From contig JBBRTH010000018.1 in the NCBI GenBank assembly GCA_038244615.1, positions 10,461-74,460 on the forward strand: 64,000 nt of DNA. Direction: 5' to 3'. Below the pieces are notes generated by a model that saw nothing but the letters and a program-made list of their open reading frames with translations, was not told where the DNA came from and searched no databases. The DNA is from Mycobacteriales bacterium. Its GTDB lineage: Bacteria; Actinomycetota; Actinomycetes; Mycobacteriales; Mycobacteriaceae. Made by a program: the position numbers and the translations under genes. Shown here one piece after another: positions 7,729 to 52,671 of the stretch. The number at the start of each line of letters is the position of its first letter. Position 1 is the first letter of the stretch.

Positions 7729-13580
<5,852 letters not shown>

Positions 13581-28924: not shown

Positions 28925-30270
28925 CGGGCCACCTCGTACTCCTGCAGTTCCAACATCGACTTGATGCGTTGGCGGTGGTCGAGACTGACCGAACGCGCGA
29001 CCCCCTCGAGCAGGGCCCGCAAGTCGTCGACGTCGTCGCAGGGCTCCTGCCAGACGTCGCGTCCGTGCAGGCGGGCCCACAGCCTCCTGAGATACGGCCT
29101 CGAGAAGATCGACAGATCGTCGATCACCTGTCGCTGACGGGGATGAATCGGTCCGCCGTCAACGAGGTAGCGACGCGCGTGCAGGACGTAGGCCTCCTTG
29201 CACAGCCTCGCCTGGATGGCGCTCGCCAACGCGTAGCGGGTAGGGGTGTCATTGCTGAACGGATGGAGATCGACCGCGACCTCGATGCCCGCGATCAGGG
29301 TTGCCTGCTTGTCCTCGGCCAGCAACCCCCAGGGAGCACACGCCCGATCGACCTCCTCGGCGCACAGCAGCGGAATGTCGGGAAGTTCGTCGCGGTCCAA
29401 TGCTCGACGCAACGTCGCCCTGACCCTGTCCGCGACGCTGCGATTCAACGGCAGATCCCCTTCTGATCCCCACAGCACGGGCGGCGGCGGTTGCGGGGCA
29501 ACGGAGCTCAGTCCGATGTCGACGATCGACCAGGGTAATTCGGCGACGTCGACCCGAGCCTTCGCGCCGAAGTTGTACGGCGTCGCATCGGCGATCAGCA
29601 CCGACCACACCCGTTGCCTGGCCATCTCGGCGTTGTGCCCGCCTGCGGCACCGAGCACGGTCGTCAGGCCGGCGAGAAACGGCCCTGCGATGGTGTCTTC
29701 CGGCCGCACGTCGCGCCAGCTGCGCTCGAGTTGGCGGGACAGCTGCGCCACCACCTCCTCACCGTCCACGTAGCGGTTGAGCACCTCGATACCGGTCCGG
29801 TCGCGGTCGTCGTGCACTCCGCGCAGTACCGACTCGGCGGTCACGCGATCGTCGGCAGCCGGTGCCCCTCGGGTTACCGCGAGCTCGAAACACACTGGGA
29901 AGTAAAGTTCTTGGGCGTTGCCGGCCGTGATGCGCAGTCTGCGGCGTTCGAGCTTCAGAACCGCGAACCATGCAGCGGTAGAGCGCAACTGGGATGCCTG
30001 ATCGAGAATCAGGTTCCGCATCGACGCTCCCGTCTCGGGTGTGACTACGGGTGCCGAGTACTGCGGATTGGCGCGGAGGCGAAACACCAACGGGTCGAGG
30101 ATCCGCTTGACGGTACGTCTCAGCGGAGCGCCGTCGGTGCCACTGAGGACCTCCACACCCGGTCCGATCGCGCGCCATGCCTCGTCGATCGCCACGCGTC
30201 GCGGCAACACGACACCCTCTCGGGTGGCGCGGGTGGCGGCGTCGGCCACCAGGCGACGGGCCGTGGTCAT
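28921..30270 (-). CDS. hypothetical protein with a C-terminal sigma-70 region-2-like segment, CHAT-locus gene 3
   Basis: 449-aa ORF; TATCCT 6 nt before the ATG (leaderless); C-terminal LHARRYL..YLRRLWARL..LRALLEGVARSVSLDH. Confidence 0.8.
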   Translation of the reverse strand: MTTARRLVADAATRATREGVVLPRRVAIDEAWRAIGPGVEVLSGTDGAPLRRTVKRILDPLVFRLRANPQYSAPVVTPETGASMRNLILDQASQLRSTAAWFAVLKLERRRLRITAGNAQELYFPVCFELAVTRGAPAADDRVTAESVLRGVHDDRDRTGIEVLNRYVDGEEVVAQLSRQLERSWRDVRPEDTIAGPFLAGLTTVLGAAGGHNAEMARQRVWSVLIADATPYNFGAKARVDVAELPWSIVDIGLSSVAPQPPPPVLWGSEGDLPLNRSVADRVRATLRRALDRDELPDIPLLCAEEVDRACAPWGLLAEDKQATLIAGIEVAVDLHPFSNDTPTRYALASAIQARLCKEAYVLHARRYLVDGGPIHPRQRQVIDDLSIFSRPYLRRLWARLHGRDVWQEPCDDVDDLRALLEGVARSVSLDHRQRIKSMLELQEYEVAR

Positions 30271-31002: not shown

Positions 31003-32250
31003 TCAGCGCGCGCCGTCGACCGCGAACGTGACGAGCGCCGCCCAGTACAACGGGCTTGCGGTCACGTCGCCGGAACGCCACTCTCGCATGCGATCCCGCT
31101 GCCATCGATTCACCGCGCGGCCACCCTCGTCGTCGTCGTGAGCATCGTCTACCGCGACGACGAGGTCGGCCATGGGATCGGCGGTGCCGCCGGTGAACTG
31201 CCGGTACCCTGCCGTCGTCGGCAGGGACCACAGCGTGGCCGTCACCAACTGCGCACCGCACAGGACCATCGCCGCGACCAAACCCGTCGCCTCGTCGAAC
31301 CGGTAGTCGCCGCCGGACGCGCACGCGATCAGCGCGACCCGGGGCGGCAGCGGCATTCGGCGGGACATGATGGCCGCCGCGGTGAGCGGACCCTCCTCCG
31401 CCAGATGCAGCGCCGCTTGGTCCGCGCGGCCGGACTGGTCCTCGGCGGCGCTGGCGTGACCGACGTAGAGCAGGCGTCGAGGCTCCTCGACCAACATCGT
31501 GGCGAACCACTCCCGGTCGGCGTCCGTGCGGCGGAACAGTTCGGTCGTCGCGGACACCCTTGGCAGGACCTGCTGCGTGGCGACGTCCTCGGCGAAGTGC
31601 CGAGCCAAGCGCGTTTCCCGAGACGGTCGACCGAGGACCGACCCCAGTGCCGAGTCGGCGCGCTGCCCTGGCACCCGTGGGTCGAGGATCAGCAGGGGCA
31701 AGCGGTGGCGACGCTCGGCCCATGCCGTGCGCGGACGCGGCGCGTTGACGATGTTCGGCGGGATGGCCATCAGCACGTCGACCAGCTCCACCAGTCGGTA
31801 GGCCTCCCCCTCGGAGTCGGCGGGCAGCGCGAGTAGGCCCCACGGCACGCGCCCCAATCTGGCACTGGGCGAGATGAAGAGCACTGCACGTGGCGTGGAA
31901 GCGCGTTCCTCTAGCAGGCGCCAGGCCGCATCGGAGAGGAGTGCCGCCCCGAGACCTCGCGCGAGCGCCAGTTCGGTGTCCGGAGCGGCGAAGGGTCCGG
32001 CCGTCAGCGCCCTGGCCACGGCTTCGGCCACGGACTCCCCCGCCGATGGCTCCGGAAGCGCGCGGGCCAGGTCGTCGAGAACCTCGCGAGTGTGCATCGC
32101 CTGAACGACCCAGGTGACCGTTCGAGACGGATCCCCGACCACCCGCAGACTGGCGTAGGTGGCCACCCCGACGTCTGCGAACCGCAGGACCAGGGCGGGC
32201 GTCTCCGGTGGGCTGGAGCGCAGCGACCCGGGAAGCGTGTTCAGGGCCAC
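31003..32250 (-). CDS. CHAT domain (caspase-like, HetF family) cysteine protease
   Basis: LFISPSARLGRVPWGLL, LLYVGHA (catalytic His), ALIACASG (catalytic Cys), GLVAAMVLCGAQLVTATLWSL, PLYWAAL; GTG start overlaps the upstream stop. Confidence 0.92.
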   Translation of the reverse strand: MALNTLPGSLRSSPPETPALVLRFADVGVATYASLRVVGDPSRTVTWVVQAMHTREVLDDLARALPEPSAGESVAEAVARALTAGPFAAPDTELALARGLGAALLSDAAWRLLEERASTPRAVLFISPSARLGRVPWGLLALPADSEGEAYRLVELVDVLMAIPPNIVNAPRPRTAWAERRHRLPLLILDPRVPGQRADSALGSVLGRPSRETRLARHFAEDVATQQVLPRVSATTELFRRTDADREWFATMLVEEPRRLLYVGHASAAEDQSGRADQAALHLAEEGPLTAAAIMSRRMPLPPRVALIACASGGDYRFDEATGLVAAMVLCGAQLVTATLWSLPTTAGYRQFTGGTADPMADLVVAVDDAHDDDEGGRAVNRWQRDRMREWRSGDVTASPLYWAALVTFAVDGAR

Positions 32251-33974
32251 GTCTCCCACACCGATTCGGCGGCGGTGATGCACTGGCCGTACCGCTGCAG
32301 CGCCAACTCTCGATAGTGATCCAGCACCGGCCCCGTGGTCGGGTCCATGCGCAACGGAGGCAGGGGGCCCAACCGCGTGAGCCCGGTGCCGTCGGTGATC
32401 GGCGGTCCCGCGGCCACCAGGGCCAGCTCGTCGACATCGGTCATCGGAGCGGCCGCCGTGGAGACACTCGACCACTCCATCGCCGCGGCGTCTGCGTGCT
32501 CCGCACTGAACGTCCCTCGCGCACTGTGGTATTCGACCAACTGGCTGACGAGATCTGAGTTCTCCCAATCCGATGCGACGGCAAAGGCACCGGCCAGCAA
32601 CGGCGCCGACACACACGTCGCCCACTGCGCCCGCGCCTCCGCGTCGGCAACCGAGTACCGCACCGAATCGACGGCCAGGGACGCGGGGACCTTGAGTTCC
32701 GCCGCCCGCTCCAGCTTCTCCATCGCCGCGCGATGGTGCGCCGTGCCCGGTTCCGTCCCGGAAATCACACCCGAGCTCTCGCGGTACCTGGCCTCGGCGG
32801 CGTCCCAATCCTCGTTCGGGCGGCCTGCGCCGTCGAAGCCCAAGTCGGCGAGCGCCTCGGCCCGCCATACGTTGCCGAGGTGGTCGTCGAGCCTGGCGTA
32901 GGCCAACCAGCTGCTGCGGGGCGAGGAATCGAGGCACGCGCGCGCCTGCGCGACCATGTCGACGGCTTCGGCGTAACGGCCACGAAAGATGGCGATCCAG
33001 CTGCGCTGCAGCAGAATCCGGTGGATGTGCAACGGCTTTCCGAGCTCGCGCCAGTGACGCTCGGCGTTCTCCCAGCACTCGTCGGCGACCTTGAGTCCAC
33101 CGGCAGACATCCTGGTCAGCCCGAAGAACAGCCAGCACCGGGAGACGTCGTTGGCGCGGGCATACTTGGCGATCACCTGATAGGCCTCGTACATCCGCGC
33201 TTCAGTGGTCACCCGGTCGCCGGCGGACCAGCTCGCGGCCCCGCGTTCCAATTGCGCTCGTGCCGTTGCCAGCTCCCATCCGCGCGCCTCGGCCCGGGCC
33301 TCGGCACGTCGCAGCCAGGGTGCGGCCTGGTGGAGCCTGCCGGTCTCGATGCAAAACCTGGCGTACCCGATGCTGCCGAGCACCCGCAGATTGTCGGCCG
33401 ACTCACCGCTGCCCGAAGACGTCTCGATGTGCTGAATCACGCTGTCCCACAACGATACGGACCGCACATGTAGATCGTCGTCACACAAACCCTCCGCGCA
33501 GACGATCCGCGCGTAGGTCAACAGATAGGCATGCTCCTCGGCGAGATCGGCGAATTCGTCGTCACCGTCGTCCAGCGCGCCGAGCGCGACCGCCGCCCCC
33601 TCGTGGTCGCCGATGGCAGCGGCGAGGCCCGTCTCCAGAAAACCTGCCCGGCGCCCGTACCTGCGAATCAGGTGGCGCACTTCGGCGGTCGTCATGGTCG
33701 ACTTCTCGACCACGTCCGGTGTCGCGGTGCCCGCCAGAATCGACGCGTAGACGGCGAGGCAGTCTCGGATGCGACGAGCACCCTCGCGCACCCCTTCGTA
33801 CGCCGTCCTGACCAGGTACAGCTCACCGAGCTGGGCCAACGCCTCGAGCATCCAATCGTCGCGATCGGCCGCCTCGATCTGCGGCATCAGAGACAGCAAC
33901 AGCTCCTTGGCCGCCGTCTCGTCGGAGGCCAAGGCCAGGTGGCGGGCCCGCTCCAGCTCCCCGGGGATCGACAC
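32241..33974 (-). CDS. alpha-helical repeat (TPR-like) protein, CHAT-locus gene 1
   Basis: Repeated helical hairpins (ALAQLGELYL, LGSIGYARFCIETGRLHQAAPWLRRA, RGRYAEAVDMVAQARACL); TATGAT 6 nt before the GTG (leaderless). Confidence 0.8.
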   Translation of the reverse strand: MSIPGELERARHLALASDETAAKELLLSLMPQIEAADRDDWMLEALAQLGELYLVRTAYEGVREGARRIRDCLAVYASILAGTATPDVVEKSTMTTAEVRHLIRRYGRRAGFLETGLAAAIGDHEGAAVALGALDDGDDEFADLAEEHAYLLTYARIVCAEGLCDDDLHVRSVSLWDSVIQHIETSSGSGESADNLRVLGSIGYARFCIETGRLHQAAPWLRRAEARAEARGWELATARAQLERGAASWSAGDRVTTEARMYEAYQVIAKYARANDVSRCWLFFGLTRMSAGGLKVADECWENAERHWRELGKPLHIHRILLQRSWIAIFRGRYAEAVDMVAQARACLDSSPRSSWLAYARLDDHLGNVWRAEALADLGFDGAGRPNEDWDAAEARYRESSGVISGTEPGTAHHRAAMEKLERAAELKVPASLAVDSVRYSVADAEARAQWATCVSAPLLAGAFAVASDWENSDLVSQLVEYHSARGTFSAEHADAAAMEWSSVSTAAAPMTDVDELALVAAGPPITDGTGLTRLGPLPPLRMDPTTGPVLDHYRELALQRYGQCITAAESVWETWP

Positions 33975-40511: not shown

Positions 40512-41540
40512 TCAGGGCCGGTAGCCGTTGGGATTGCGCTGTTGGAAGCGCCAGGCGTCGCGGCACATGTCCGCGAGAGTGAGGCGGGCCTGCCAGCCCC
40601 AGTTGTCCCGTGCCGCGGTCGCATCGGCGACCAGCTCCGGCACGTCACCGGAGCGCCGTGGACAGATGGTGAAGGGGATGTCGCACCCGCAGGCCTCGGC
40701 GAATGCATCCCGAAGCTCGAGCACGGAGGTCCCGACACCGGTACCGAGATTGAGTACCTGGATGTCGTCGGTGTCGGCGAAGTGGTCAAGGGCCACGATA
40801 TGGCCGTCGACCACGTCGAGGACGTGGATGTAGTCGCGGATGGCGGTGCCGTCGGGGGTCGGGTAGTCACCGCCGAAGATCGACAGCTTGTCGAGGCGGC
40901 CCACGGCGACCTGGGCCAGGAACGGCATCACGTTCTTGGGTACTCCGGTGGGGTCTTCACCCAGCAGCCCGGACGGGTGTGCGCCCACGGGATTGAAGTA
41001 GCGCAGGCTGATCGCCTGCAGTTCCGGGTGGTAGCGAACCGCCTGGCCGATCATCTGTTCGCACGTCCACTTCGACCAGGCATAGGGGTTCGTGGGTTGT
41101 GCCGGTGCGTTCTCGTCGAGCGGTCCGCCCTCGACGTCGCCGTAGATCGAGCAGGAGGAGGAGAACACCAGTCGGTTGACGTTGGCGTCCCTCATCGCGC
41201 GAAGTAGACTAGCCGTCCCACCGATGTTGACGTCGAAGTACTCCAGCGGAATCTGTGTTGATTCGCCGACCGCCTTGCGGGCAGCGAAATGAATCACCGC
41301 GTCCACATGGTGGTCGGACATCACCTCGGTGACGCGGGCCCGGTCGGCGACGTCGAGCGTGTAAGTGGTGATCGGACGTTCGGCCAGCCGTCGGATCCGG
41401 TCGATGGAGTGGGGTGAACTGGTCGAGTGGTCATCGACGATGACGACGTCGTAGCCACTGTTTGCCAGCGCGACGCTGGCATGGCTGCCGATGAAGCCGC
41501 CGCCGCCCGTGACCATGATCGTCGACGGGCTCCTCACCAT
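40512..41540 (-). CDS. galE: UDP-sugar 4-epimerase, GalE family (possibly UDP-xylose 4-epimerase)
   Basis: GGGGFIGSH, IHFAARKAVGES, FSSSCSIYG, YAWSK (YxxxK), LRYFNPVGAH. Confidence 0.85.
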   Translation of the reverse strand: MVRSPSTIMVTGGGGFIGSHASVALANSGYDVVIVDDHSTSSPHSIDRIRRLAERPITTYTLDVADRARVTEVMSDHHVDAVIHFAARKAVGESTQIPLEYFDVNIGGTASLLRAMRDANVNRLVFSSSCSIYGDVEGGPLDENAPAQPTNPYAWSKWTCEQMIGQAVRYHPELQAISLRYFNPVGAHPSGLLGEDPTGVPKNVMPFLAQVAVGRLDKLSIFGGDYPTPDGTAIRDYIHVLDVVDGHIVALDHFADTDDIQVLNLGTGVGTSVLELRDAFAEACGCDIPFTICPRRSGDVPELVADATAARDNWGWQARLTLADMCRDAWRFQQRNPNGYRP

Positions 41541-43369
41541 CTGAACTCCTCGAAGAAGTAGGCGGGGTATTGACTGGCGGCGAGGACGAAGAGACCGACG
41601 ACCAGGACGTTCAGCAGAAGCGTCCCGCCCACCAGAGCCAGGAACCTGCGAGCGGGCGAAGGCTGTGACCGGACCGCTTCATAGCCGTGCAGGAACGGGA
41701 CCATGACGCTCACTGCGACGTAGGCGGCCGCGTTCAGCAGGCATAGAAAGATGTAACCCACCGGCCCACGGTGGTTGATACCCACCAGCGCGGCAATCGA
41801 GAGCACCGCGGCGATGACCATGTAGGGCAAGACCGTTCGCACTGGAAGCGGGACGACGGCCTTGACGTTCTTCGGGGTGACCTTCAGTTCGAGCGGTCGC
41901 GGTGCCACGATTTGGATCAGCGCGGCAAGCAGGCCCCACCCGTTGTAGACCCATCTCGTCAGGACGTAGAACGTGCCTTCCCAGCTCAACGCGGGCGCGT
42001 CATTCGGCCGTAGCAGCCGGTGAGCGCGCAGTACCCCGTAGATTGCCAACAGCCAGCAACTCAGTGCACCGACCAGGACGACGAACTCGAAGTAGTTCAC
42101 CCGCACCCACTGGATGTTGAACACAGCGGCGGCGGCGGTGAGAGAGAGACCCGCTGCGAACGTCGCTACCAGCATCGGGTACCAGGCGAGCGCGAACCCG
42201 AACCGGATCCTTTTGCGAAAAGGAAGGCGCGACAATGTGCGCGGCATGAGGTTCAACATGATCACGCCCAGGCTGCGCGACCACTGGAACTCCTGGGTGA
42301 TCTCTGCGGGGAAATCCGTCGGGCCGTCGCCGTCGGCGTGCGCGTCGACGGCGAACGCGCCGCACCAACCCGCCACGTTCATCAGATAGGAAGTCGAGAA
42401 GTCTTCGGCCAGTTCCGGCCCGATGCCCCCGATCGACGCGAGCGCGGTGGTGCGAACTGCGTAATGCGACCCGATGCAGACGGGAGCAAGATCACCCTTG
42501 TGGCCGTTGTGGCCGAGTTGGTGAGCGCCGTGGAATGTTGCCTCGACGAAGAGACGGCCCCTTACCGCCCAGGATTGGTGGCGGTTCTTTCCGCAGACAC
42601 TCGGCGCCCCTACATAGCCGATGGCCGGGTCGGCGAACGGGCGGACCATCTCCGCCAGGTAGGTCGGCTCGGGGACGTGGTCGCAGTCCAGTTGCGAGAC
42701 GACGTCGTAGTCGCGGTAACCGAAGCGATCGTAAAAGTAGGCCAGGTTGCCTTCTTTGCAGCGTCGTCGGCGAGGCCAGGTTTCGCGTTGATACTCCTGC
42801 ACTCCGCGGCGGGTGGAGACGCGCACGCGGTTTCGGTGGCACCATGCCAGGGTCTCGTCGGTAGGGTCCTCGTCGCAGAGCCAGACATCGTAGGCGTACG
42901 GGAAGTCCTGACACAACATGGCTTCGATAGTGGTGCGAGTCAGGGGCCACGGCTCCGATGGCGCCTTCGTGACAACCATGGCGACCCTCACTTGCGGGAT
43001 CTCCAGCGTGGGTGAGACGCGTTGCAGCCGGTTGGCAGTGAGGAGGAAGTACACCGGCACCGTGGACACCCAGGCGAGGATCACGGTGTTGACCGTGAAC
43101 GGTAACGCGTCGGTGCGGTGCTGCGGCAGTAGCCACCAGATCCAGAAGATGACGTACGTTGCAACCCATGCCACGGTCAGCGCAGCGACCGCTACCCTGG
43201 CACGACGCGGTAAGGCCGGTACGAAGGTACCCGGCCGACTGCACCGCCGCCGCGGCCGGCCACGGGCGAAGACCGGACCCGAAGGGCGTATCGCGACGAT
43301 GCCGCCCTTCGACAGCGCGCGGATGAAGTCTTCCTCTCGAGAGACCGCGGGCCTCTCGAGAGTGGTCAC
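41534..43369 (-). CDS. processive GT2 polysaccharide synthase (cellulose-synthase-like)
   Basis: CDED, CKEGNL, QLDCDH, LAEDF, QEFQW; two N-terminal and about six C-terminal TM helices; no PilZ domain visible. Confidence 0.9.
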
Positions 43370-44313
43370 GACGCCAATTCCGTCGACATCGCTTCGATGC
43401 ACGCCTCGACGGTGCGGGCGATTCCGTCTCGCACCGGCATCTGCGGATTCCATCCGAGCTTGGTCTGGGCCACCGCGATGTCAGGCTGACGGCGGGTCGG
43501 ATCGTCCTGGGGCAGTGGGCATAACAGGATCTCGGATGTCGAGTCCGTCAACTCCAGGACCAATTCGGCAATCTCGCGAACGGTCAGTTCGACCGGGTTG
43601 CCGAGGTTGATCGGTCCGGACTCATCGGAGTCCAGCATGAGAACCAGGCCCCGGACGAGATCGTTGACGTAGCACAGGCTGCGAGTCTGGCTGCCGTCGC
43701 CGAACAGCGTCAGCGGTTCGCCTCGGAGAGCCTGGTCGATGAAGTTGGACACGACCCGCCCGTCGTCAGGACGCATCCGCGGGCCGTAAGTGTTGAAGAT
43801 CCGCACGATGCCGATGTCGACACCTTCTTCGTTGCGGTAGGCCATCGTGATCGCCTCGGCGAAGCGCTTGGCCTCGTCGTAGACGCTGCGCGGACCGATC
43901 GGGTTGACGTTGCCCCAATACGATTCGGTCTGGGGATGCACCAGCGGGTCACCGTAGACCTCGCTGGTGGAGGCCAAAACGAATCTCGCCCCCTTGGATC
44001 GCGCGAACTCCAACGCGTTGAGCGTGCCCTCGGAACCGGTACGCAGGGTGAAGATGGGCCGCCGTAGATACTCCGGCGGTGAGGCGGGGCTGGCCAGGTG
44101 CACGACCCCGTCGAAGACGCCCGGAAACCTGATCGATTCCAGGACACTGCCCTTGGCGAACGTGAATCGAGGTGAAGCGATGAGGTGTTCGAGGTTCTCG
44201 GGCCGGCCGGTCGACAGGTCGTCGAGGCAAACCACGTTGTCCCCGCGACCGATGAGCAGATCACAGACGTGTGAACCCAGGAAGCCGGCACCACCCGTCA
44301 CCAGAACACGCAC
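43366..44313 (-). CDS. uxs: UDP-glucuronate decarboxylase (UDP-xylose synthase)
   Basis: [71 protein letters not shown]. Confidence 0.9.
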
Positions 44314-44360
44314 TTACTTACTCCTTTAGTGACATGAGGTCGTTTGATCTCGGGAAGTCG

Positions 44361-45677
44361 TCACGGACGCGCAAACCCCCGATACGTCCAGCCCGCTTCG
44401 CGCCACAACCGCGGTTCCAGGCAGTTGCGGGCGTCGATGATCTGTTTCGAGCCGGTCACGGCGGCCAAGTCGGCGGGCTGCAACTTGCGGAACTCATCCC
44501 ATTCGGTCAGAACCAGCACCACATCGGCATCCCGGCAAGCCTCACCGGTCGAGTCGGCGTAGCGCAGGGCCGGATAGCGTCGGCGGGCGTTGTCCATGGC
44601 CTTGGGGTCGTAGACGGTCGGGTGAGCGCCCTGCAGTTGGAGTTCACCGGCGACGTCCAGAGCCGGCGAGTCGCGGACATCGTCGGAGTCCGGCTTGAAT
44701 GCGGCGCCCAACACGGCCACCCGGGCCCCGGCGAGTGAACCGCACAACTCCCGTGCCACGTCGACGACACGGCCGCGCTGACGCACGTTGATGTTCTCGA
44801 CTTCTCGGAGGAAGGCCAGTGAGTCACCGACGCCGAGTTCGTCGGCGCGGGCCACGAACGCCCGGATGTCTTTCGGCAGGCAGCCGCCGCCGAAGCCAAG
44901 CCCGGCATTGAGGAACTTCCGCCCGATCCGCGCGTCGTACCCGATGGCGTCCGCGATCGTTGTGACGTCGGCCGAGGTCACCTCACAGACCTCGGCGACC
45001 GCGTTGATGAACGAGATCTTGGTGGCGAGGAACGCGTTGGCCGAAACCTTGACCAGCTCAGCGGTCGGGAGGTTGGTGACGATGAAGGGAACATCGTGCT
45101 GGATCGGGGCATAGAGGTCGCGCAGCGTCGCCTCGGCGACATTGCACGGGCGGTTCTCGATGCCGACCACGATTCGGTCGGGGCGCAGAGTGTCCTGGAC
45201 CGCGTACCCCTCGCGCAGGAACTCCGGGTTCCAGGCAAGTTCGACGCCATCGCCGGCCGGGGCGATGGCGCGGACGCGCTCAGCGAGGTCTTGGGCCGTT
45301 CCCACCGGGACCGTTGACTTGCCGACGATAAGTGTCCGGCGATGCAGATGAGGTGCCAGAGCGTCGACTGCCGCATGCAAGAAGGACAGATCGGCACCTG
45401 GGTTGTCCGCTCGCTGCGGGGTCCCGACCGCGAGAAAGTGCACGTCGGCAGAGGCGGCGATGTCTTCGTAGCTGTCGGTGAATCGGAGGCGCCCTCGAGA
45501 AAGATTGCTCTTCAGCAGACTGTCGAGCTCAGGTTCGAAGAATGGCAGTTCGCCGGCCTGCAGTTTCGTGATCTTGTCGGTGTCCACGTCGACTGCGACA
45601 ACTTCGTGGCCGATCTCTGCCATGCAGACAGCATGGGTGGCGCCGAGGTACCCGCTGCCGATGACGGAGATCAGCAT
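44361..45677 (-). CDS. ugd: UDP-glucose 6-dehydrogenase
   Basis: VIGSGYLG, KSTVPVGT, WNPEFLREG, GFGGGCLPKD, FKPDSDDVRDSP. Confidence 0.96.
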   Translation of the reverse strand: MLISVIGSGYLGATHAVCMAEIGHEVVAVDVDTDKITKLQAGELPFFEPELDSLLKSNLSRGRLRFTDSYEDIAASADVHFLAVGTPQRADNPGADLSFLHAAVDALAPHLHRRTLIVGKSTVPVGTAQDLAERVRAIAPAGDGVELAWNPEFLREGYAVQDTLRPDRIVVGIENRPCNVAEATLRDLYAPIQHDVPFIVTNLPTAELVKVSANAFLATKISFINAVAEVCEVTSADVTTIADAIGYDARIGRKFLNAGLGFGGGCLPKDIRAFVARADELGVGDSLAFLREVENINVRQRGRVVDVARELCGSLAGARVAVLGAAFKPDSDDVRDSPALDVAGELQLQGAHPTVYDPKAMDNARRRYPALRYADSTGEACRDADVVLVLTEWDEFRKLQPADLAAVTGSKQIIDARNCLEPRLWREAGWTYRGFARP

Positions 45678-46011
45678 GGATCTGCCCCTTACTGGCTCGA
45701 TCAGGATCAGGTGTAGTTCTTTGCTGTTCACGTACAACGTTCACCTGAACGTGCTTCAGACAAATTTCTAGACAATTGCCGGCAGTCTGCAACGGGTGAG
45801 TACACCCACATCAGTGGGCATCTAATCATTCCGCCCATGATAGCAACCATTTGATGGTAACCGATAAACATCCAAACAGTATGATCTCGATCATATTGCT
45901 AAGATCGCGTGTCGCCATGGAGTAGGTCCAGGCGGCGAGCCGGTAACCGGCTGACGGTAGGGCGCAGTGAACCCGATGAGCCTGCGGATGCCGCCCGGCG
46001 ATGGGCCGCGA

Positions 46012-47667
46012 TCAGCCGGTGATGGCGCCGATGCCGGAGCGAGCCGAGTCGACGACGGTGCCAAGGAAGTCTCGGCCGCCTGGATCGGTGACGCCGGCGG
46101 CGGGCAGCGCAACACCGCCGTCGATCAGGGCGGAACCGGCCTGCGGCGCGAAACCGGTGGCCTTGTCGAGCTGTGTGGCGCGCCCGATGGCCGTAGGCAG
46201 CGAGGGGGCCACAAGTTGCGGGCTGCCCTGAAGGCCGGTTGCTGTGCCGTTCAGCCGTTCGGACTCCGTGGCCGCACGGAACTGCTCGAGGGTGGCGAAA
46301 TCCGTGTCGCCCCACTGAACGAGTTTTGCACCCCAGGAGTAGTAGAAGTTGCCGGCGAGAGTGACGTCAGTGGCGGGTTGCCGGTTGACCAGGGCCACCG
46401 GCCCGGCGAGGATGTTGTTGGCCACCTTGGTCCGCTCCACTGCGCCGATCACCAGCAGCGCGGGTGTTGGCGGGGTTGGGTCGTTGATGACTACGGTGTT
46501 TTGGTAGATGACGGCGTCGGAGATTCGGCCGTCGTCATCGCCGATTCCGCTACCGCCCACCAGCGTTATCGCGCCCATGTACCCGTTTCGCGAGTCGTTG
46601 ACGGAAATGTTGTAACGCACTGCGTTTCGGGTGTTGGACCCGTTCGTGCGCTGGCCGAACAGGAGAAATCCCTCACCCGAGTTGTCGTAGGACAGGTTGT
46701 ACTGGATCATCGAGTCGGTTGTGCTCTGGTCGAGGCCGAACCCACCGCCGTCGGCCCCGAGTGTCCTGTTGCTGTACGACACGCTGTGCTCGATGATCAC
46801 CCGCGTGGAGTCGTAGGCCCAGATCCCCAAGGGTCCTTCACGCATGTTGCCCGCCTGCTTTCCATTCGAGTACGCGGTTGACAGGGCGATGCGGCCGGTG
46901 TCCACGCTACCGATGACGATGCCGCTGCCGGTGTTGTGGTCGGTGTTGTTTCGACTGCCGGTGTTGTCATAGGCCATCACCCCGGTGATCGTCACGCGGG
47001 TGTGCGCGTAGGACGGGTGCGCATAGTCAGGTGTGGCGCCGAACACAGCCACCCCGTTGTTGCGGTTGTTATGCGAGGCCAAGTTCGACATCACCACGTC
47101 GGCGAATCCGGCGGATCCGTCGGCACCTACCGCGATGCCGTTCTCGAACCCGCTGACATCGAGGTTCTCCAACGTGATTCCAGCGAGTCGGCTCTTGATT
47201 GCAGCGGAGGCGTTCAGCCGGACACCGGTGTCCTGGGCTCCGTTACTGGAGCCGAAGATTCCGAGATTCCGAATCGTAATTCCTGCGGTGTCGCGCACCT
47301 CGATACCGAGGTCGGAGACGATGGCTGCGCGAGCCTGGCCGTAAGAGTCGATGACCACCGGGTTGGCGGCATCACCGGCCTCGCCAAGACCGATTGACAG
47401 TGTGCCGGTCAGCCGGCCGCCCAAGAGCACCCGGTCGCCGGGCACAAGTCGTTGCTTCGACACCCGGTCCAGGGTCCGCCACGCCCGATCGGTGGATGTG
47501 CCGTCGGACGCATCGTTTCCGTCGGGATTCACGTAGAAGGTGTGGCCGCGCAGGTCGTCACTGCCCAGCCCGCCGACCCGGGCGATCGTGATGCCGAGAG
47601 CGAAAGCGGTGGCGATCCCGACAGCCGTCAGTAAACCGATGATCAGCGACCTGCGGCGACGCGGCAT
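46012..47667 (-). CDS. exported/anchored right-handed beta-helix (pectin-lyase fold) protein
   Basis: N-terminal RRRRS plus hydrophobic helix; FYVNPDGNDASDGTSTDRAWRTL; repeated IxNxxxxN / GGGFGLD / N.SYDN.G.G coils; alternative GTG start at 47745. Confidence 0.8.
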   Translation of the reverse strand: MPRRRRSLIIGLLTAVGIATAFALGITIARVGGLGSDDLRGHTFYVNPDGNDASDGTSTDRAWRTLDRVSKQRLVPGDRVLLGGRLTGTLSIGLGEAGDAANPVVIDSYGQARAAIVSDLGIEVRDTAGITIRNLGIFGSSNGAQDTGVRLNASAAIKSRLAGITLENLDVSGFENGIAVGADGSAGFADVVMSNLASHNNRNNGVAVFGATPDYAHPSYAHTRVTITGVMAYDNTGSRNNTDHNTGSGIVIGSVDTGRIALSTAYSNGKQAGNMREGPLGIWAYDSTRVIIEHSVSYSNRTLGADGGGFGLDQSTTDSMIQYNLSYDNSGEGFLLFGQRTNGSNTRNAVRYNISVNDSRNGYMGAITLVGGSGIGDDDGRISDAVIYQNTVVINDPTPPTPALLVIGAVERTKVANNILAGPVALVNRQPATDVTLAGNFYYSWGAKLVQWGDTDFATLEQFRAATESERLNGTATGLQGSPQLVAPSLPTAIGRATQLDKATGFAPQAGSALIDGGVALPAAGVTDPGGRDFLGTVVDSARSGIGAITG

Positions 47668-47745
47668 CGATGTGGCCCCCAATGTTCGTGTGCAGCTGCC
47701 CCGCACCCGGCGCCCGAATACTAGTCGGCGTCGGCGGTGATTCAC

Positions 47746-48330
47746 CTAGCGCCAGCTAGGCAGCCAGATCTCCATGGTCCACGTCGACGGGGAAACCGGA
47801 ATGCCGATGAGTATCGGGTGCAACCAGGCGAAGTTGGTGATCACCAGAGCGATGTAGCCGCACGCCACGAGAAGGCCCAGCGTTCGGCGTTCGGCGTTCG
47901 GCATCGCGCGTCGGGGCGTGCACGATGTCGCAGCGGATCAGCGCGATCGCAATGATCAGGAAAGGCGTCATCGGCACCGCATAGAAAGAGTACATCTGCC
48001 GGTTGATGTCGGCGAACCACGGCAGGAACCCTGCGCGATATCCAACCACCGACGGATCCAACCACCGTCGGCAGACCGCAAGTCGCGCCAAACGAACGCC
48101 CGCCATGCCGCTTAGAACAGGACGGGCACTGCCAACCACCACAGCACCGGCCGCAGCGACATCGGCCAGTCCACGGTTTGGATTCCCAGGGGTGGTGGTT
48201 GCTCGGGGATTTCGTCAGCGTGGAATGGAAGTGATAGGCCTTGTAGGTGTATTGCCATAGTGAACGGATCGCGTCCGGCGGCTGGAAACCACTGCCGTTC
48301 GGCGATCGACTGGTCGGCTGTGGCGGTGTC
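47746..48330 (-). pseudogene. 3' fragment of a protein O-mannosyltransferase (PMT/GT39, Rv1002c-like)
   Basis: RSLWQYTYKAYHFH, NHHPWESKPW, WPMSLRPVL, WWLAVPVL, GFLPWFADINRQMYSFYA, ITNFAWLHP, EIWLPSWR*; frameshifts, in-frame stop, deletion, 5' part missing. Confidence 0.85.
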
Positions 48331-48332
48331 GA

Positions 48333-50333
48333 TCAGTCCAGCTCGGCGGATTCTCGATGCGCCGCGGCGGAGGATCGCCGAGAAACCACGAGACTGATCA
48401 CGGCGCTCAGGGCCGCGAGGGCGACTACACCGCCGGCCACCCACCACTGCCACGAGAACCCGCGTTGAGGGCTCTTCATCTCCGCCTGCCCAGCGGGGTT
48501 CGGAACAACGACCGGCTCGCGACCCGGCACCGAGATCACCGCACCACCCTCGAGGTCCGCCCAGCCGCCCGGGTCGGCGGCCAGTGTGCCCAGCAAGTCA
48601 TCGAGTTGCTGGGGCTGGCCATTGGAGGTGGCAATCAGCACAGAGCGTTGCTTGTCGAACACGGTCTGCAATGACGCGAAGGTTATCGGCGCCCCCAGCG
48701 CCAGGGTGGTCGGCTTTCCATCGGCGTCCACGCCCTTCACTTTGACGTTGTTTCCGGAACCTTCGATCGGAAGCGTGATCTCTTTGTCGGACCATCCGTC
48801 GGCCGCAATGAGAATCGCCGGGTCGGCGCTTTTCGCCGCCTGCGCCAAGCTCGTCACAGTGGCATCGACCGGGACCGAACTAAGACGCTGTAGCCCCACC
48901 AGAATCGAGACAGCACGCACCGTGTCAAGAAATGCATCGGTACCGATTCCCACCTGTACCCGGGGCATCAGGGTCTGCGGCAGCGACTGAAACCCCAGCG
49001 GAACGGGTGGTGTGGCCGGAGTGGTTGCCACCTGGCTTCGGCTGTCGATGATCAGCGTGATCGGTTGGAAGTCCCCGCAATTGCCGGCATTGCCCGTGAC
49101 ATTCAGCTTCACCGCCAAGTTGGTGTTGCGCTCGAGCAGTTGATCGGGGATGTTCACCCATCGGTCGATTACGCCGGTGTCGTCAGTCGTCCACTGGTCG
49201 AGGGTGTCTTTGCCGATCATCACAACGATCTGGCCACCGAAGTCGCGCGGCACCACAGAGTACGAGCCCATCAGGTGGACGCGGACGTTCCGAATCGAGT
49301 GGCCGAAACGGGTCTGGTCGATCCCCACCGTCACCTGAGGCGATAACCAGGCCGCACTGAGATCGGACTGACCCAGGCCCCCCAGCGTCGCGGTATCGCC
49401 GGGCAGCTTGGTCGCGCTGGCCAGCGCCGGCGCAACCGCCGCCCTGCTCACGGCCAGCGGAAGCAGCAGGTCATTCGTGAGGAGCCGGATCTGGTTCGTG
49501 AGGGCGTCACCCGATCCCGTGATGGACAGTGCCGGAATGCCGGCCCCACCCTGGAGCGCCAGCCCGGCGGTGGGGCCCTCAGTGATGACGATTTGCCGTT
49601 CCAGCGCGGCCGACGGTATAGCCGGGGCGGTTGTTCCCTCCTCGAGTGGAACGACGGCCACCTGCGGATTCTGAACGCCGTAGTGGGAGACCACGGCCGT
49701 GGCAAGGCGCACCGCCGCGTTCGACTCGGCCCGTGTCGGTGTGGCCGGCACCCCGATTGTCAGTTTGCGCAGCACCGGCGGGAGGAAGTCGGCAACAGTC
49801 GTTGGCGGTACCTCGACGCCCGCATAGGAAATCGATCCATCGACGAAACGCACGGGATCCAACGAGTCGACGCAATAGCCCTCGAGCGGCGCAAATGTCA
49901 TGGTCAGAGTGACGGTTGCGTAGTGGTCGACGACCTTGACACCCGGAAGCGGAATGACCACCGGAGCCATGTCGGCCGGCGGCAACTCCACTCTGGATAT
50001 CGTCCGACTGTCTTGGGTGACGGTCACCAGCACAGTGCGCACATTGAGCGGAACTTGGAGCACCGCGTTCAGCGCTACCGGCGCGAGACCGGCCGGCACG
50101 GGAATGCCCACCGAGGTGGTGCCCCGTGGTCCGTAGAACGTTGGCGGTGAGCCGACGCCCAAGTCGGTCAGCGACAGCGTCGGCGAGTCGACAACGGAGG
50201 ACGCCGGGGGGGCTGGTGCCGCCGTTTCGTTGCCGATGTCATCCGGTTCGGCGTGTGCGAACGGTGCGATCCAGTAAAGCACTGAGGCGACGACGGCAAC
50301 GGTAACGATGCGTCGTGACAAGGTTGAGTTCAT
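48333..50333 (-). CDS. BcsB-like secreted protein with C-terminal membrane anchor
   Basis: Signal peptide ending AHA; two-fold beta-sandwich plus alpha/beta repeat (TLSLTDLG / TATLGGLG); C-terminal TM WWVAGGVVALAALSAVISLVV. Confidence 0.65.
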   Translation of the reverse strand: MNSTLSRRIVTVAVVASVLYWIAPFAHAEPDDIGNETAAPAPPASSVVDSPTLSLTDLGVGSPPTFYGPRGTTSVGIPVPAGLAPVALNAVLQVPLNVRTVLVTVTQDSRTISRVELPPADMAPVVIPLPGVKVVDHYATVTLTMTFAPLEGYCVDSLDPVRFVDGSISYAGVEVPPTTVADFLPPVLRKLTIGVPATPTRAESNAAVRLATAVVSHYGVQNPQVAVVPLEEGTTAPAIPSAALERQIVITEGPTAGLALQGGAGIPALSITGSGDALTNQIRLLTNDLLLPLAVSRAAVAPALASATKLPGDTATLGGLGQSDLSAAWLSPQVTVGIDQTRFGHSIRNVRVHLMGSYSVVPRDFGGQIVVMIGKDTLDQWTTDDTGVIDRWVNIPDQLLERNTNLAVKLNVTGNAGNCGDFQPITLIIDSRSQVATTPATPPVPLGFQSLPQTLMPRVQVGIGTDAFLDTVRAVSILVGLQRLSSVPVDATVTSLAQAAKSADPAILIAADGWSDKEITLPIEGSGNNVKVKGVDADGKPTTLALGAPITFASLQTVFDKQRSVLIATSNGQPQQLDDLLGTLAADPGGWADLEGGAVISVPGREPVVVPNPAGQAEMKSPQRGFSWQWWVAGGVVALAALSAVISLVVSRRSSAAAHRESAELD

Positions 50334-50399
50334 CGACGCATATCGTAACCAGCTACCGTCGCTACGTGGGCCACTTTGTGCACCCGCTCCGGCTCCTGA

Positions 50400-50560
50400 T
50401 CACCCTGGGCCGCGACTGTCGATGGCCTGCTGGACCTCGGTGACCGCGATGTCGATCGGCATCGCGCTGAGGCGCTGCAAGCCCACGATGATCTGCGTTG
50501 CACCCACCGAGTCGACGAACGCCCCGACTCCCACATCGATCTGGGCCGGGGGTCGGCGGG
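50400..50560 (-). pseudogene. remnant of a paralog of the BcsB-like gene
   Basis: IDVGVGAFVDSVGATQIIVGLQRLSAMPIDIAVTEVQQA aligns by eye with VQVGIGTDAFLDTVRAVSILVGLQRLSSVPVDATVTSLAQA of 48333-50333. Confidence 0.75.
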
Positions 50561-50614
50561 AGGGCACCCGCGACGGGAGCGGCGCGGCCGGTGGGAGCGA
50601 CCCCCAGGCGTCGC

Positions 50615-50885
50615 CGGTCGGTAGCTGACGGACGGGTGGACGTGTTGGTGGAGCATCCGGGCCGGACCCGGTTCGCCTGCCCGGACTGGGATGCGTCGCT
50701 GTCGGTCGATGACCACTCGGCCGAGCGGGTGTGGCGGCATCTGGACTCGCGGGCGTACTTGACCTTGCTGCACGCGAGTCCGCCGCGGGTGGCTTGCCTC
50801 GAGAACGAGTTGCGTCAGGTCCAGCTGCCGCGGGCCGAGCCACCCTCTCGCGCTTCACGCCCTTGTTCGAGCGGCTTGTGCCGGT
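50615..50885 (+). mobile_element. degraded ISL3-family transposase fragment (zinc-finger/HTH N-terminus)
   Basis: VEHPGRTRFACPDW..DDHSAERVWRHLD..LHASPPRVACLENELRQVQLPRAEP, then RFTPLFERL in another frame. Confidence 0.75.
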
Positions 50886-51329
50886 CTAGCTCGTGTGAAC
50901 GATCAGGACGTCGGACTTGGACCGACGCGCGACGTTGGCCGGCACCGATCCGAGCAGCCGACCGGCGATCGTGCTCAGCCCGACGTTGCCCACGACGAGA
51001 AGGTCGGCCTTGATCTCTTCCACCAGATCGACCAGGGCGTCGACCGGGGCGCCGACGACGGCCTTCTCCTCGACGTCCTTGGCTCCCGCCGTGTGGGCCC
51101 GCTCCTTGGCCTCGCGAAGGATCGCGTAGATGGGAGCGTTGCCCGCCATCTTGTAACCCTCGTCCTTGAGGACGTCGGCAGCCCGAGCATCCTCACTCTG
51201 GGGGAAGTACGCGGTCGCCACGATCAGCTTTGCGCCCGCTCCCCCGGCGATCTGGGCGGCCCGGTCTACCGCACGCAGCGATGAATCCGAACCGTCAGTG
51301 CCGACCAAAACGGTCTGATAGGCGCCCAT
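50886..51329 (-). CDS. universal stress protein (Rv1636-like)
   Basis: VGTDGS.SS.RAVDRAA, DLLVVGNVGL, LLGSVPANVARRSK.DVLIVHT. Confidence 0.95.
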   Translation of the reverse strand: MGAYQTVLVGTDGSDSSLRAVDRAAQIAGGAGAKLIVATAYFPQSEDARAADVLKDEGYKMAGNAPIYAILREAKERAHTAGAKDVEEKAVVGAPVDALVDLVEEIKADLLVVGNVGLSTIAGRLLGSVPANVARRSKSDVLIVHTS

Positions 51330-51810
51330 TCATGCCCTCCAGTTTCGATTGCCAAGCCACCCCAGACAGTAACCCGTCGTTCAACGCACAGGGGCCAATT
51401 CGCTCGGATGACATGCGTATTGCCGGGACTGATCGTAACCGCAGGCCAGTCCGTGAACGCGACCTTGGTGAGCAACGGTACGCGCGTCGCCCCGACGCGT
51501 GACGGCTCGCTTCGACGGGCCCAATGTGACCTGCGTCATTGACAGCGCCATCCAAGGTATTGAAGGTGTTCTCCCACAAAGGCTTTTATCGTGCTGCTGA
51601 GTTGATCCCGATGCCTCGGATCGAAGTTGGACGGCTGGGATTCCTTGACGCCCAGCGCAAATAGTTACACCCGAGGTAGCTGGCACGGAGTCGGTGCGAG
51701 GAAGGCCTGCCCGTCGAAGTCGTGGGAGAACCGGACAATCTTCGTGCCGGCTTGTTCCGGCGTCCAGGCATGCAACGGTGGGTCGGCAGGTCGGTAAGGA
51801 TCGACCTGGC

Positions 51811-52671
51811 TTAGCTGCTGCGTGAGCGGCCGAAGTACAACTCCTGGGTGGCGATGCACACCACCTGGCCCGTGCAGTTGTACATCGTGGCCGTCGCCAG
51901 TCCGCGTCCACCGATTCCACTGGGCGAGAACTGATCCGACAGCACCCAGTCGGACAGGTCGACCGGTCGATGGAACCAAAGGGCATGGTCGATTAAAGCG
52001 TTGTAGGTCGTGAGCGGCGTGGCGCGCCGCATGGTGATGGCGGCCTCCAGCATCGTAGTGCCCGACAGATACGTCAGCAGGCAGCTGTGCAGGACCTCGT
52101 CATCGGGCACGGATTCGGTTGGCCGCCACCACATCCGGATGCGCGGTGAGGGCTCGGATAGCTCCAGAGCGAGCCGGGGCGGCGGGTCGACGTAACGCAA
52201 CTCGAAGGGCTGCGGACGGATCCAGTAACCGCCGAGTTCGTCGGCGTAGTCCGCCAACTGCTCCACGACGGGTGGCACCGACTCCGGGTCGGGTACGTCC
52301 GGCATCGGGGCGTGGTAGTCGAGACTGTCCACCGGGGTGCTGAACGACGCGAGTGCCTCCAACAGCACCTCGCCGTCCTGCCGTGCGGTGACCTGCCTGG
52401 TGGACAGCGTCCCTCCGTCGCGGAGCCGGACGACCTGGAAGTCGACTGGCCGCTTTGCGTCACCGGCGCGTAGGTAATACACGTGCACGCTGTGCGGTGC
52501 GCGTCCGGGCGCTGTGCGACTCGCGGCCATGAGCGCCTGTCCGGCGATGTGCCCACCGACGATGTGGTGCGCCGGGTTGTCGAGCTGGGTGGCCACGAAG
52601 GTGTCGTCGTCGATCTGGTCGACCTGCAAGGTGGCGACGATGTCGGCCAGCGACGGCGAGTGGAAGGTCAC
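51811..52671 (-). CDS. tesB: acyl-CoA thioesterase II (TesB family)
   Basis: GGHIAGQAL, HSVHVYYLRAGD, DGGTLSTRQV, LLTYLSG, DHALWFHRP. Confidence 0.88.
   Translation of the reverse strand: MTFHSPSLADIVATLQVDQIDDDTFVATQLDNPAHHIVGGHIAGQALMAASRTAPGRAPHSVHVYYLRAGDAKRPVDFQVVRLRDGGTLSTRQVTARQDGEVLLEALASFSTPVDSLDYHAPMPDVPDPESVPPVVEQLADYADELGGYWIRPQPFELRYVDPPPRLALELSEPSPRIRMWWRPTESVPDDEVLHSCLLTYLSGTTMLEAAITMRRATPLTTYNALIDHALWFHRPVDLSDWVLSDQFSPSGIGGRGLATATMYNCTGQVVCIATQELYFGRSRSS

Follow-up and report, generated by a model that had tools for sequence, protein, structure and literature searches.

An ApsS-type synthase cassette predicted to make an arabinose/xylose polymer in a mycobacterium

Introduction

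What might a mycobacterium produce with a set of UDP-pentose genes that is linked to a membrane-bound polysaccharide synthase, and which of the genes in such a run belong to one apparatus? The question is raised by positions 40512-50333 of a 64,000-nucleotide (nt) contig segment from a member of the Mycobacteriales (this whole segment is referred to below as the window), where genes for UDP-glucose 6-dehydrogenase (ugd), UDP-glucuronate decarboxylase (uxs), a family 2 glycosyltransferase (GT2) and a GalE-family epimerase lie beside a gene for a protein with the fold of BcsB. An original prediction, drawn from the letters of the DNA and their reading frames, held that the strain makes an undescribed pentose-containing capsule or biofilm glycan by means of a BcsA/BcsB-like machine.

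The arabinan of mycobacteria is composed of D-arabinofuranose derived from decaprenyl-phospho-arabinose, and we know of no precedent for L-arabinopyranose/xylose polymer chemistry in the mycobacterial envelope; in bacteria at large, synthase-dependent pentose polysaccharide chemistry is, to our knowledge, so far represented by one rhizobial system. The polysaccharide of that system, APS, is reported to consist mainly of arabinose. Published accounts place the APS locus of Sinorhizobium meliloti on pSymB (cuxR / uxs1-uxe-apsS-apsH1-apsE-apsH2) and ascribe to its operon the production of a Congo-red-binding, arabinose-containing polysaccharide (Schaeper et al. 2017 and 2019, as described in PMC7902896 and PMC12560781). 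As regards BcsA and BcsB, both are missing from M. tuberculosis, while some environmental mycobacteria possess such genes (PMC7952908). No description of the cassette reported here in actinobacteria or mycobacteria was encountered in the literature searched, in agreement with the claim that the glycan is undescribed; a published account of exopolysaccharide clusters of Actinoplanes proved to be unrelated.

Results

The locus and its ApsS-like synthase

The locus comprises six intact genes and one pseudogene, all of which are located on the minus strand in the order BcsB-fold gene, pmt scrap, beta-helix gene, ugd, uxs, membrane GT2 gene and GalE-family epimerase gene (Table 1); every member of the originally predicted gene list was thus found in place. 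The predicted overlaps of GT2 with its two neighbours are also present, in that the stop of uxs and the start of GT2 have GTGA in common (4 nt) while the stop of GT2 and the start of the epimerase gene share ATGGTGA (7 nt), an arrangement which indicates co-translation. The core of our finding is the intact five-gene cassette at 40512-47667, which extends from the beta-helix gene to the epimerase gene.

The GT2 protein is 45% identical to S. meliloti ApsS over 573 of its 611 amino acids (aa; E 1e-160), and a tblastn search of plasmids located it on Sinorhizobium pSymB replicons at a single place per record, with 48% identity and 80% coverage. The comparison with ApsS made in the original prediction is therefore well founded, a uxs gene and a GalE-family epimerase gene lying alongside the synthase gene in both organisms. 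Domain searches of the Pfam/TIGRFAM type assigned the protein to PF13632, PF13641 and PF13506 and, weakly, to TIGR03030 (CelA), and returned no PilZ domain. As a single sequence it had no match among PDB sequences, and its relation to solved structures emerged only from a family profile and a fold search. The profile retrieved BcsA at 5e-18 and 1e-12, with FDADHVP, TED and QxxRW of the GT2 aligning with LDCDHVP, AED and QEFQW of BcsA (the DxD, ED and Q..W motifs), and its match to E. coli BcsA ended at residue 681, ahead of the PilZ domain of that protein.

The AlphaFold model of the GT2 (predicted local distance difference test score, pLDDT, 88.6; predicted template-modelling score, pTM, 0.88) places membrane helices at the C-terminus. 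When the model was compared with the PDB using Foldseek, BcsA ranked first (template-modelling score, TM, 0.54-0.59, at approximately 18% sequence identity), followed by CesA, CslF6 and the hyaluronan and chitin synthases. BcsA, plant CesA, CslF6 and the hyaluronan and chitin synthases are membrane-integrated processive synthases. On the strength of the model and the aligned catalytic motifs, the GT2 is predicted to be a BcsA-type membrane-integrated synthase without PilZ, in line with the synthase character originally proposed for it. Residues 20-51 of the protein (approximately 43310-43217, minus strand) form a conserved cytoplasmic N-terminal segment with the consensus LSxGxVVxxxPSGPVF, which is modelled as a small beta-sheet before the first membrane helix; ApsS aligns from residue 42 onwards.

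These features bear on the proposal that the GT2 is not processive and that the cassette supplies UDP-xylose and UDP-arabinose for the decoration of glycolipids or glycoproteins. Xylose does occur in the lipooligosaccharides of M. marinum (PMC12507525), and use of UDP-xylose is thus not new to the genus. In relatives, moreover, the cassette adjoins pmt, which is a protein-glycosylation gene. The GT2, however, has the multi-helix channel architecture and the motifs of processive synthases, it is orthologous to a polysaccharide synthase, and no lipooligosaccharide genes (pks, pap, mmpL) were found near the locus, all of which makes a decorating role extremely improbable.

Conservation of the cassette

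Actinobacteria contain many members of the GT2 family (Streptomyces, Nocardia, Rhodococcus, Pseudonocardia, Arthrobacter and others, at 52-57% identity), and no named Mycobacterium appeared among the best 120 matches. Its gene neighbourhood was assessed in 80 metagenome loci, recovered with an alignment of the GT2 family, and in roughly 15 further cassette loci, including those designated L001-L010, L018, L019 and L021; a scan of genome contigs with the single GT2, which relies on exact peptide patterns, yielded five loci only. In the metagenome loci galE was adjacent to the GT2 gene in 69 of 80 cases, ugd in 56, uxs in 46 and the beta-helix gene in 36, and since many of the contigs are only a few kb long these counts represent lower bounds.

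The closest relative, a metagenome locus with 71% identity, carries the beta-helix gene, ugd, uxs, GT2 and epimerase gene in the same order as the window. The same genes in shuffled order are found in one Streptomyces genome, in another actinobacterial genome and in one metagenome-assembled genome, the context of the Streptomyces orthologue being uxs-GT2-epimerase-ugd, an arrangement noted when the CslA family of Streptomyces was weighed as another possible affiliation of the GT2. The beta-helix gene adjoins the GT2 gene in five actinobacterial loci (L001, L009, L018, L019 and L021), and five proteobacterial loci hold uxs, galE and GT2 together, two of them with ugd in addition. Because the neighbourhood recurs in metagenome, actinobacterial and proteobacterial loci, the pairing of an ApsS-like synthase with a UDP-pentose pathway is a property of the family rather than a chance association in one genome.

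Nucleotide-sugar genes

The product of ugd is a standard UDP-glucose 6-dehydrogenase, with all three UDPG_MGDP_dh domains present; its start is likely the ATG at 45677, as judged by alignment with a 77% identical orthologue (L009) and by an upstream AAGGGG motif. Uxs scores 352 bits against human UXS1 as compared to 141 bits against the next short-chain dehydrogenase/reductase (SDR) family, and is 54% identical to S. meliloti Uxs1. The epimerase is 56-82% identical to the epimerases of other actinobacterial cassettes and is of a generic GalE type, and its putative UDP-xylose 4-epimerase activity is proposed from its context. The UDP-pentose pathway of the original prediction thus stands in so far as Ugd, Uxs and a 4-epimerase are encoded and coupled to the synthase, while the part that concerns action of the epimerase on UDP-xylose is a suggestion made by the gene neighbourhood.

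Transcription of ugd, uxs, GT2 and the epimerase gene probably starts from a promoter in the AT-richer region upstream of ugd (45678-46011). This region is poorly conserved among three relatives except for the part by the start codon, which is too little to define an operator, and a scan for consensus promoters and terminators detected nothing above chance. The perfect palindrome in this region (Table 1) is a possible operator; two relatives do not preserve it. In being AT-rich, the spacer is reminiscent of the uxs1 promoter of Sinorhizobium, which MucR silences.

The beta-helix protein

The beta-helix protein itself has no Pfam match, its homologues carrying PF13229 (Beta_helix). The family profile retrieved five GH136 lacto-N-biosidase structures from the PDB (4e-32 to 2.5e-16) and no other family below 0.01. 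The match covers the N-terminal cap as well as turns of the catalytic core of a right-handed beta-helix, as in LnbX and ErLnb136. The N-terminus is hydrophobic and rich in arginine and resembles a signal or anchor, which suggests that the protein is exported or held on the outer side of the membrane. It leads straight into a beta-helix cap that corresponds in the alignment to the beginning of the catalytic construct of LnbX. Differences from these enzymes are evident in that neither a GH136-I/LnbY chaperone domain within the protein nor a partner gene beside it was found, and in that the genetic context is biosynthetic instead of catabolic.

Comparison with the APS system

The annotated S. meliloti locus reads AraC - SDR - galE - GT - DUF995 - GH26 - DUF995 and contains no BcsB-like gene. 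With it the window cassette shares a full-length ApsS orthologue, a Uxs orthologous to Uxs1, a GalE-family epimerase gene alongside, and the design of a synthase-dependent system in which a single synthase is accompanied by a glycanase encoded in the locus (in the window, the GH136-like candidate). It differs from APS by having the GH136-like beta-helix protein where APS has DUF995 and GH26 proteins, by the incorporation of ugd into the cassette, by an epimerase with more resemblance to classical GalE than to Uxe, by the mycolate outer membrane of its host and by the adjacent BcsB-fold gene. As far as sequence comparison can tell, the window cassette is an actinobacterial counterpart of APS, of the same kind and yet a distinct variant.

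The BcsB-fold protein and its origin

The gene at the upstream end of the locus specifies a 666-aa protein with an N-terminal signal peptide and a C-terminal membrane helix, which retains all 44 of the 44 family-invariant residues. Pfam gave no match, and its BcsB family was faintly recognised in two homologues only. Comparison of the AlphaFold model (pLDDT 86, pTM 0.80) with the PDB was much more informative, since the top 22 matches were all BcsB (to E 2.7e-28, TM approximately 0.6, approximately 660 columns, 10-14% identity) and the next fold followed at E 1e-6. Approximately 470 homologues are detectable, and those bearing a name belong to Mycobacterium or Mycolicibacterium.

These homologues point to another site in the genome as the source of the gene. 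In five of six contexts, including those of the 63% and 62% identical relatives, the BcsB-like gene immediately follows rpsQ, within the known gap that precedes atsA and rplN; in the sixth, a short contig with a 73% identical relative, a tandem BcsB-like pair directly precedes a sulfatase gene and the contig ends before rpsQ is reached. The rpsQ-atsA locus (Mycobacterium sp. DL592 and genomes from metagenomes) thus resembles the window in harbouring the family from which the 666-aa protein derives (50-73% identity), and in having, at times, two tandem paralogues, as is implied for the window by the remnant at 50406-50600. It is dissimilar in its partner genes: ugd, uxs and galE are lacking, and two loci (L011 and L020) have the BcsB-like gene followed by a 505-aa protein, a 491-aa GT2 which is unrelated to ApsS, and a 557-aa protein. 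The 491-aa enzyme is 22% identical to the window GT2 (E 0.08), which reflects shared superfamily membership only. The intervals concerned (L011, 10001-16612; L020, 10001-18407) represent a candidate synthase locus in their own right between rpsQ and atsA/rplN, with one or two BcsB-fold genes, a GT2 that matches PF13641/PF13632, and 505-aa and 557-aa neighbours without family assignment; in other species the BcsB-like gene alone is left beside the sulfatase gene.

The sequence between the BcsB-like gene and the cassette preserves a record of how the two came together. The pmt scrap has at least three frameshifts and a premature stop, and is 86% identical at the nt level to the 3' end of pmt in L021, a 68-kb contig whose beta-helix protein is 65% identical to that of the window and on which rpfB, tatD, metG, ..., rsmI, pmt, beta-helix gene, ugd, uxs and GT2 follow one another, with pmt directly preceding the beta-helix gene. 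The window is colinear with this contig from 48316 to 42306 at 71-86% identity; the similarity begins inside the 3' part of pmt and ends 17 nt from the stop codon of the BcsB-like gene. The pmt scrap is thus a scar of the earlier site of the cassette, just downstream of pmt. (In L021 itself, pmt and ugd are each called as two genes, at 8572-9897 and 11964-12948, probably as a result of assembly frameshift errors.) Upstream of the intact BcsB-like gene lies the remnant at 50406-50600, which was absent from the original prediction and is 64% identical over 47 aa (E 1e-11, tblastn) to a 642-aa paralogue in L020. Given the point at which colinearity with L021 ends and the presence of this remnant of a second paralogue, the region is most likely a join of two relocated segments, namely the cassette from inside pmt and a BcsB-like pair from the rpsQ-atsA region, the composite now being located between usp and uvrA with one gene of the pair decayed.

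The possibility that the junction between the BcsB-like gene and pmt is an assembly chimera was rejected: a 12.5-kb contig from one sequencing run covers 45009-52000 and a contig from another study covers 48046-48446, and the junction is real as it is spanned by independent contigs of two metagenome studies. Beyond 48167 and 48837, contigs from the microbial mat no longer follow the window, and may reflect a related strain with another arrangement.

The part of the original prediction that joined the GT2 and the BcsB-fold protein in one BcsA/BcsB-like machine can now be weighed. Both folds are present. The GT2 has the BcsA fold with its DxD, ED and Q..W motifs, and the 666-aa protein has the whole BcsB fold and its topology, down to the signal peptide and C-terminal membrane helix. 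In addition, the BcsB-like gene neighbours the cassette on the same strand and is intact (five synonymous to three non-synonymous polymorphisms), its family is encountered beside a GT2 in L011 and L020, and the juxtaposition persists in two sampled populations. Against the view that the BcsB-fold protein is the obligatory periplasmic partner of the GT2, with the whole 9.8-kb run operating as one machine, a BcsB-like gene is absent from 80 of 80 metagenome loci and from the approximately 15 other cassette loci, as well as from the ApsS operon. Conversely, a GT2 of the window type is absent from all BcsB-like loci examined, the usual GT2 neighbour of the family being the different 491-aa enzyme, and in the window the 590-nt pmt pseudogene separates the BcsB-like gene from the cassette, and the gene lies between the two scraps, precisely at the rearrangement breakpoint. 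Further departures from the Bcs cellulose synthase are the lack of PilZ in the GT2 and the nucleotide-sugar genes, which point to pentoses and not glucose. An obligatory partnership, or recruitment of the protein as a periplasmic helper, is consequently unlikely, if well worth entertaining, and the BcsB-fold gene most probably arrived recently and is a neighbour or bystander, not a built-in subunit. A hybrid exporter created by recombination, whereby an ApsS-type synthase would have acquired the BcsB-fold subunit of the rpsQ-linked locus in order to deliver an L-arabinopyranose/xylose polymer to the capsule, is a conjecture that we consider distinctly unlikely.

Polymorphism

Comparison of populations provided a partial list of polymorphisms, the numbers of which are small. 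In ugd, uxs, GT2 and galE there are 11 synonymous and two non-synonymous differences, and indels occur in both scraps (48286 and 50545). The cassette genes look maintained, as judged from the retention of invariant residues and the mostly synonymous polymorphisms of the biosynthetic genes. With respect to the scraps, the microbial-mat population has a 1-nt deletion at 48286, consistent with non-coding DNA in the pmt scrap, while around the remnant at 50406-50600 coverage in the second metagenome falls to zero over 50450-50677, and in the first metagenome one nt is inserted after 50545; this stretch therefore varies between populations.

Host and genomic surroundings

Judged from its UvrA and Usp matches and the order of its backbone genes, the host is a mycobacterium. 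The match of its UvrA to that of M. tuberculosis reaches 1903 bits, the Usp gene adjoining the locus is orthologous to M. smegmatis 5AHW and Rv1636, and the backbone reads rpsA-coaE-uvrB-MFS (major facilitator superfamily) gene-...-usp-[locus]-uvrA-...-lysX-...-pheT, which we take to be the Rv1630-Rv1650 order. Genes for DUF427, UvrA, Usp and an acyl-CoA thioesterase flank the locus. The host organism is rare, given that the protein collection contains no relatives at 90% identity even for Usp and the thioesterase and that near-identical DNA was found in only one sediment and one microbial-mat metagenome. Elsewhere in the window, three open reading frames of 416, 449 and 577 aa with a high G+C content at third codon positions and no Pfam match lie on the minus strand at 27830-30270 and 32241-33974.

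Table 1. Features of the locus, with positions in the window.
Feature	Position	Strand	Evidence
GalE-family UDP-sugar 4-epimerase, proposed UDP-xylose/UDP-L-arabinose	40512-41540	-	TIGR01179 galE, 383 bits
ApsS-like membrane GT2 synthase, 611 aa, GTG start	41534-43369	-	ApsS match, BcsA profile, AlphaFold model
Uxs, UDP-glucuronate decarboxylase (UDP-xylose synthase)	43366-44313	-	human UXS1, 352 bits; Uxs1, 54%
Ugd, UDP-glucose 6-dehydrogenase	44361-45677	-	TIGR03026, 427 bits; all three UDPG_MGDP_dh domains
AT-richer intergenic region upstream of ugd, with palindrome ATGATCGAGATCAT	45678-46011; palindrome 45881-45894	-	read from sequence
Right-handed beta-helix protein, 551 aa, putative GH136-like glycanase	46012-47667	-	homologues with PF13229; GH136 profile match
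pmt pseudogene, 3' third of protein O-mannosyltransferase gene	47746-48332	-	NF058602 positions 423-468 of 530, E 1e-11
BcsB-fold exported protein, 666 aa, intact	48333-50333	-	AlphaFold model; PDB fold matches
Remnant of second BcsB-like paralogue, approximately 65 aa	50406-50600	-	tblastn

Discussion

Employing a combination of sequence, profile and fold comparisons, we arrive at a joint reading of the locus to which we assign a probability of about two in three, namely that the cassette is a counterpart of APS that makes and exports a pentose polymer, and that the BcsB-fold gene is a recent neighbour. The product would probably be an arabinose/xylose polymer. In the mechanism proposed, Ugd would convert UDP-glucose to UDP-glucuronate and Uxs would convert the latter to UDP-xylose, part of which the GalE-family epimerase would turn into UDP-L-arabinopyranose; the ApsS-like GT2 would polymerise the pentose and carry the growing chain over the plasma membrane by way of its own channel, whereupon the exported GH136-like beta-helix protein may trim or release the chain outside. 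This last role is likened to that of BcsZ in cellulose synthesis and of the GH26 protein ApsE in Sinorhizobium.

A number of observations weigh against this reading and must be set beside it. The accessory and regulatory parts of APS are not apparent: no gene of the window locus has a match to DUF995 (ApsH1/H2) or GH26 (ApsE), and among the genes flanking the locus there is none for an AraC-type regulator such as CuxR, the c-di-GMP (cyclic di-GMP)-responsive activator of the APS locus. One actinobacterial cassette, L018, is without an adjacent epimerase gene, for which reason arabinose may not be universal to the family and xylose could be polymerised. As to the beta-helix protein, the acid/base and nucleophile of ErLnb136 are D568/D575 (PMC7335108), and the invariant D306 and D313 of the window family, seven residues apart, have the GH136 spacing but fall two positions out of register in the HMMER alignment; its gene also displays three synonymous and five non-synonymous polymorphisms, in what is a small sample. 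Any polymer would furthermore have to cross the arabinogalactan and mycolate layers. Finally, the epimerase is 41% identical to S. meliloti Uxe and is nearer to classical E. coli GalE (358 bits), and no RNA sequencing run among those searched contains the locus sequence; each of these two points has its own alternative explanation.

An epimerase that resembles E. coli GalE more than Uxe could provide UDP-galactose instead, and the GT2 might then polymerise a hexose (for example into a beta-glucan or galactan) while the pentose genes serve otherwise. In favour of such an explanation, the epimerase scores as a GalE equivalog (TIGR01179), the nearest solved folds of the GT2 are glucan synthases, and the Uxe of S. 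meliloti is itself reported to act bifunctionally on UDP-Glc/Gal (Schaeper 2019, as cited in PMC12560781 and PMC7902896). It does not, however, account for the conservation of uxs and ugd beside the GT2 gene across two phyla or for the translational coupling of uxs in the window, and the characterised relative makes an arabinose-containing polymer (PMC7902896). We therefore hold hexose polymerisation to be very unlikely.

The lack of RNA reads, in turn, raises the possibility that the locus is silent or decaying acquired DNA without present function. The region is a mosaic with two pseudogene scraps, its G+C content is 63-65% as compared to 66-69% over much of the window (some other stretches being equally low), and in the laboratory its counterpart in rhizobia is silenced and cryptic (PMC12560781). 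Against this, all six genes are full length with their family-invariant residues kept, and the ratio of 11 synonymous to two non-synonymous polymorphisms in the biosynthetic genes is accompanied by an accumulation of indels in the scraps instead, so that we regard a functionless locus as highly improbable.

With regard to the biology of these organisms, the rearrangement history uncovered here shows how mycobacterial envelope loci move from one core-genome site to another, the cassette having come from beside pmt and the BcsB-like gene from the rpsQ region. Because the cassette is also carried by organisms that can be grown in culture, such as Streptomyces sp. CdTB01, Nocardia inohanensis and Rhodococcus sp. 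OK302, the prediction can be put to a direct test. If the preferred reading of the cassette as an APS counterpart is true, a large uncharacterised family of actinobacterial loci, distributed over Streptomyces, Nocardia, Rhodococcus, Pseudonocardia and some environmental mycobacteria, makes synthase-dependent pentose polysaccharides. A polymer derived from UDP-L-arabinose would be new for mycobacteria, which would then have, besides the decaprenyl-phosphate D-arabinofuranose pathway, another route, based on UDP-sugars, to surface glycans that contain arabinose, and it would be a candidate matrix polymer for environmental biofilms.

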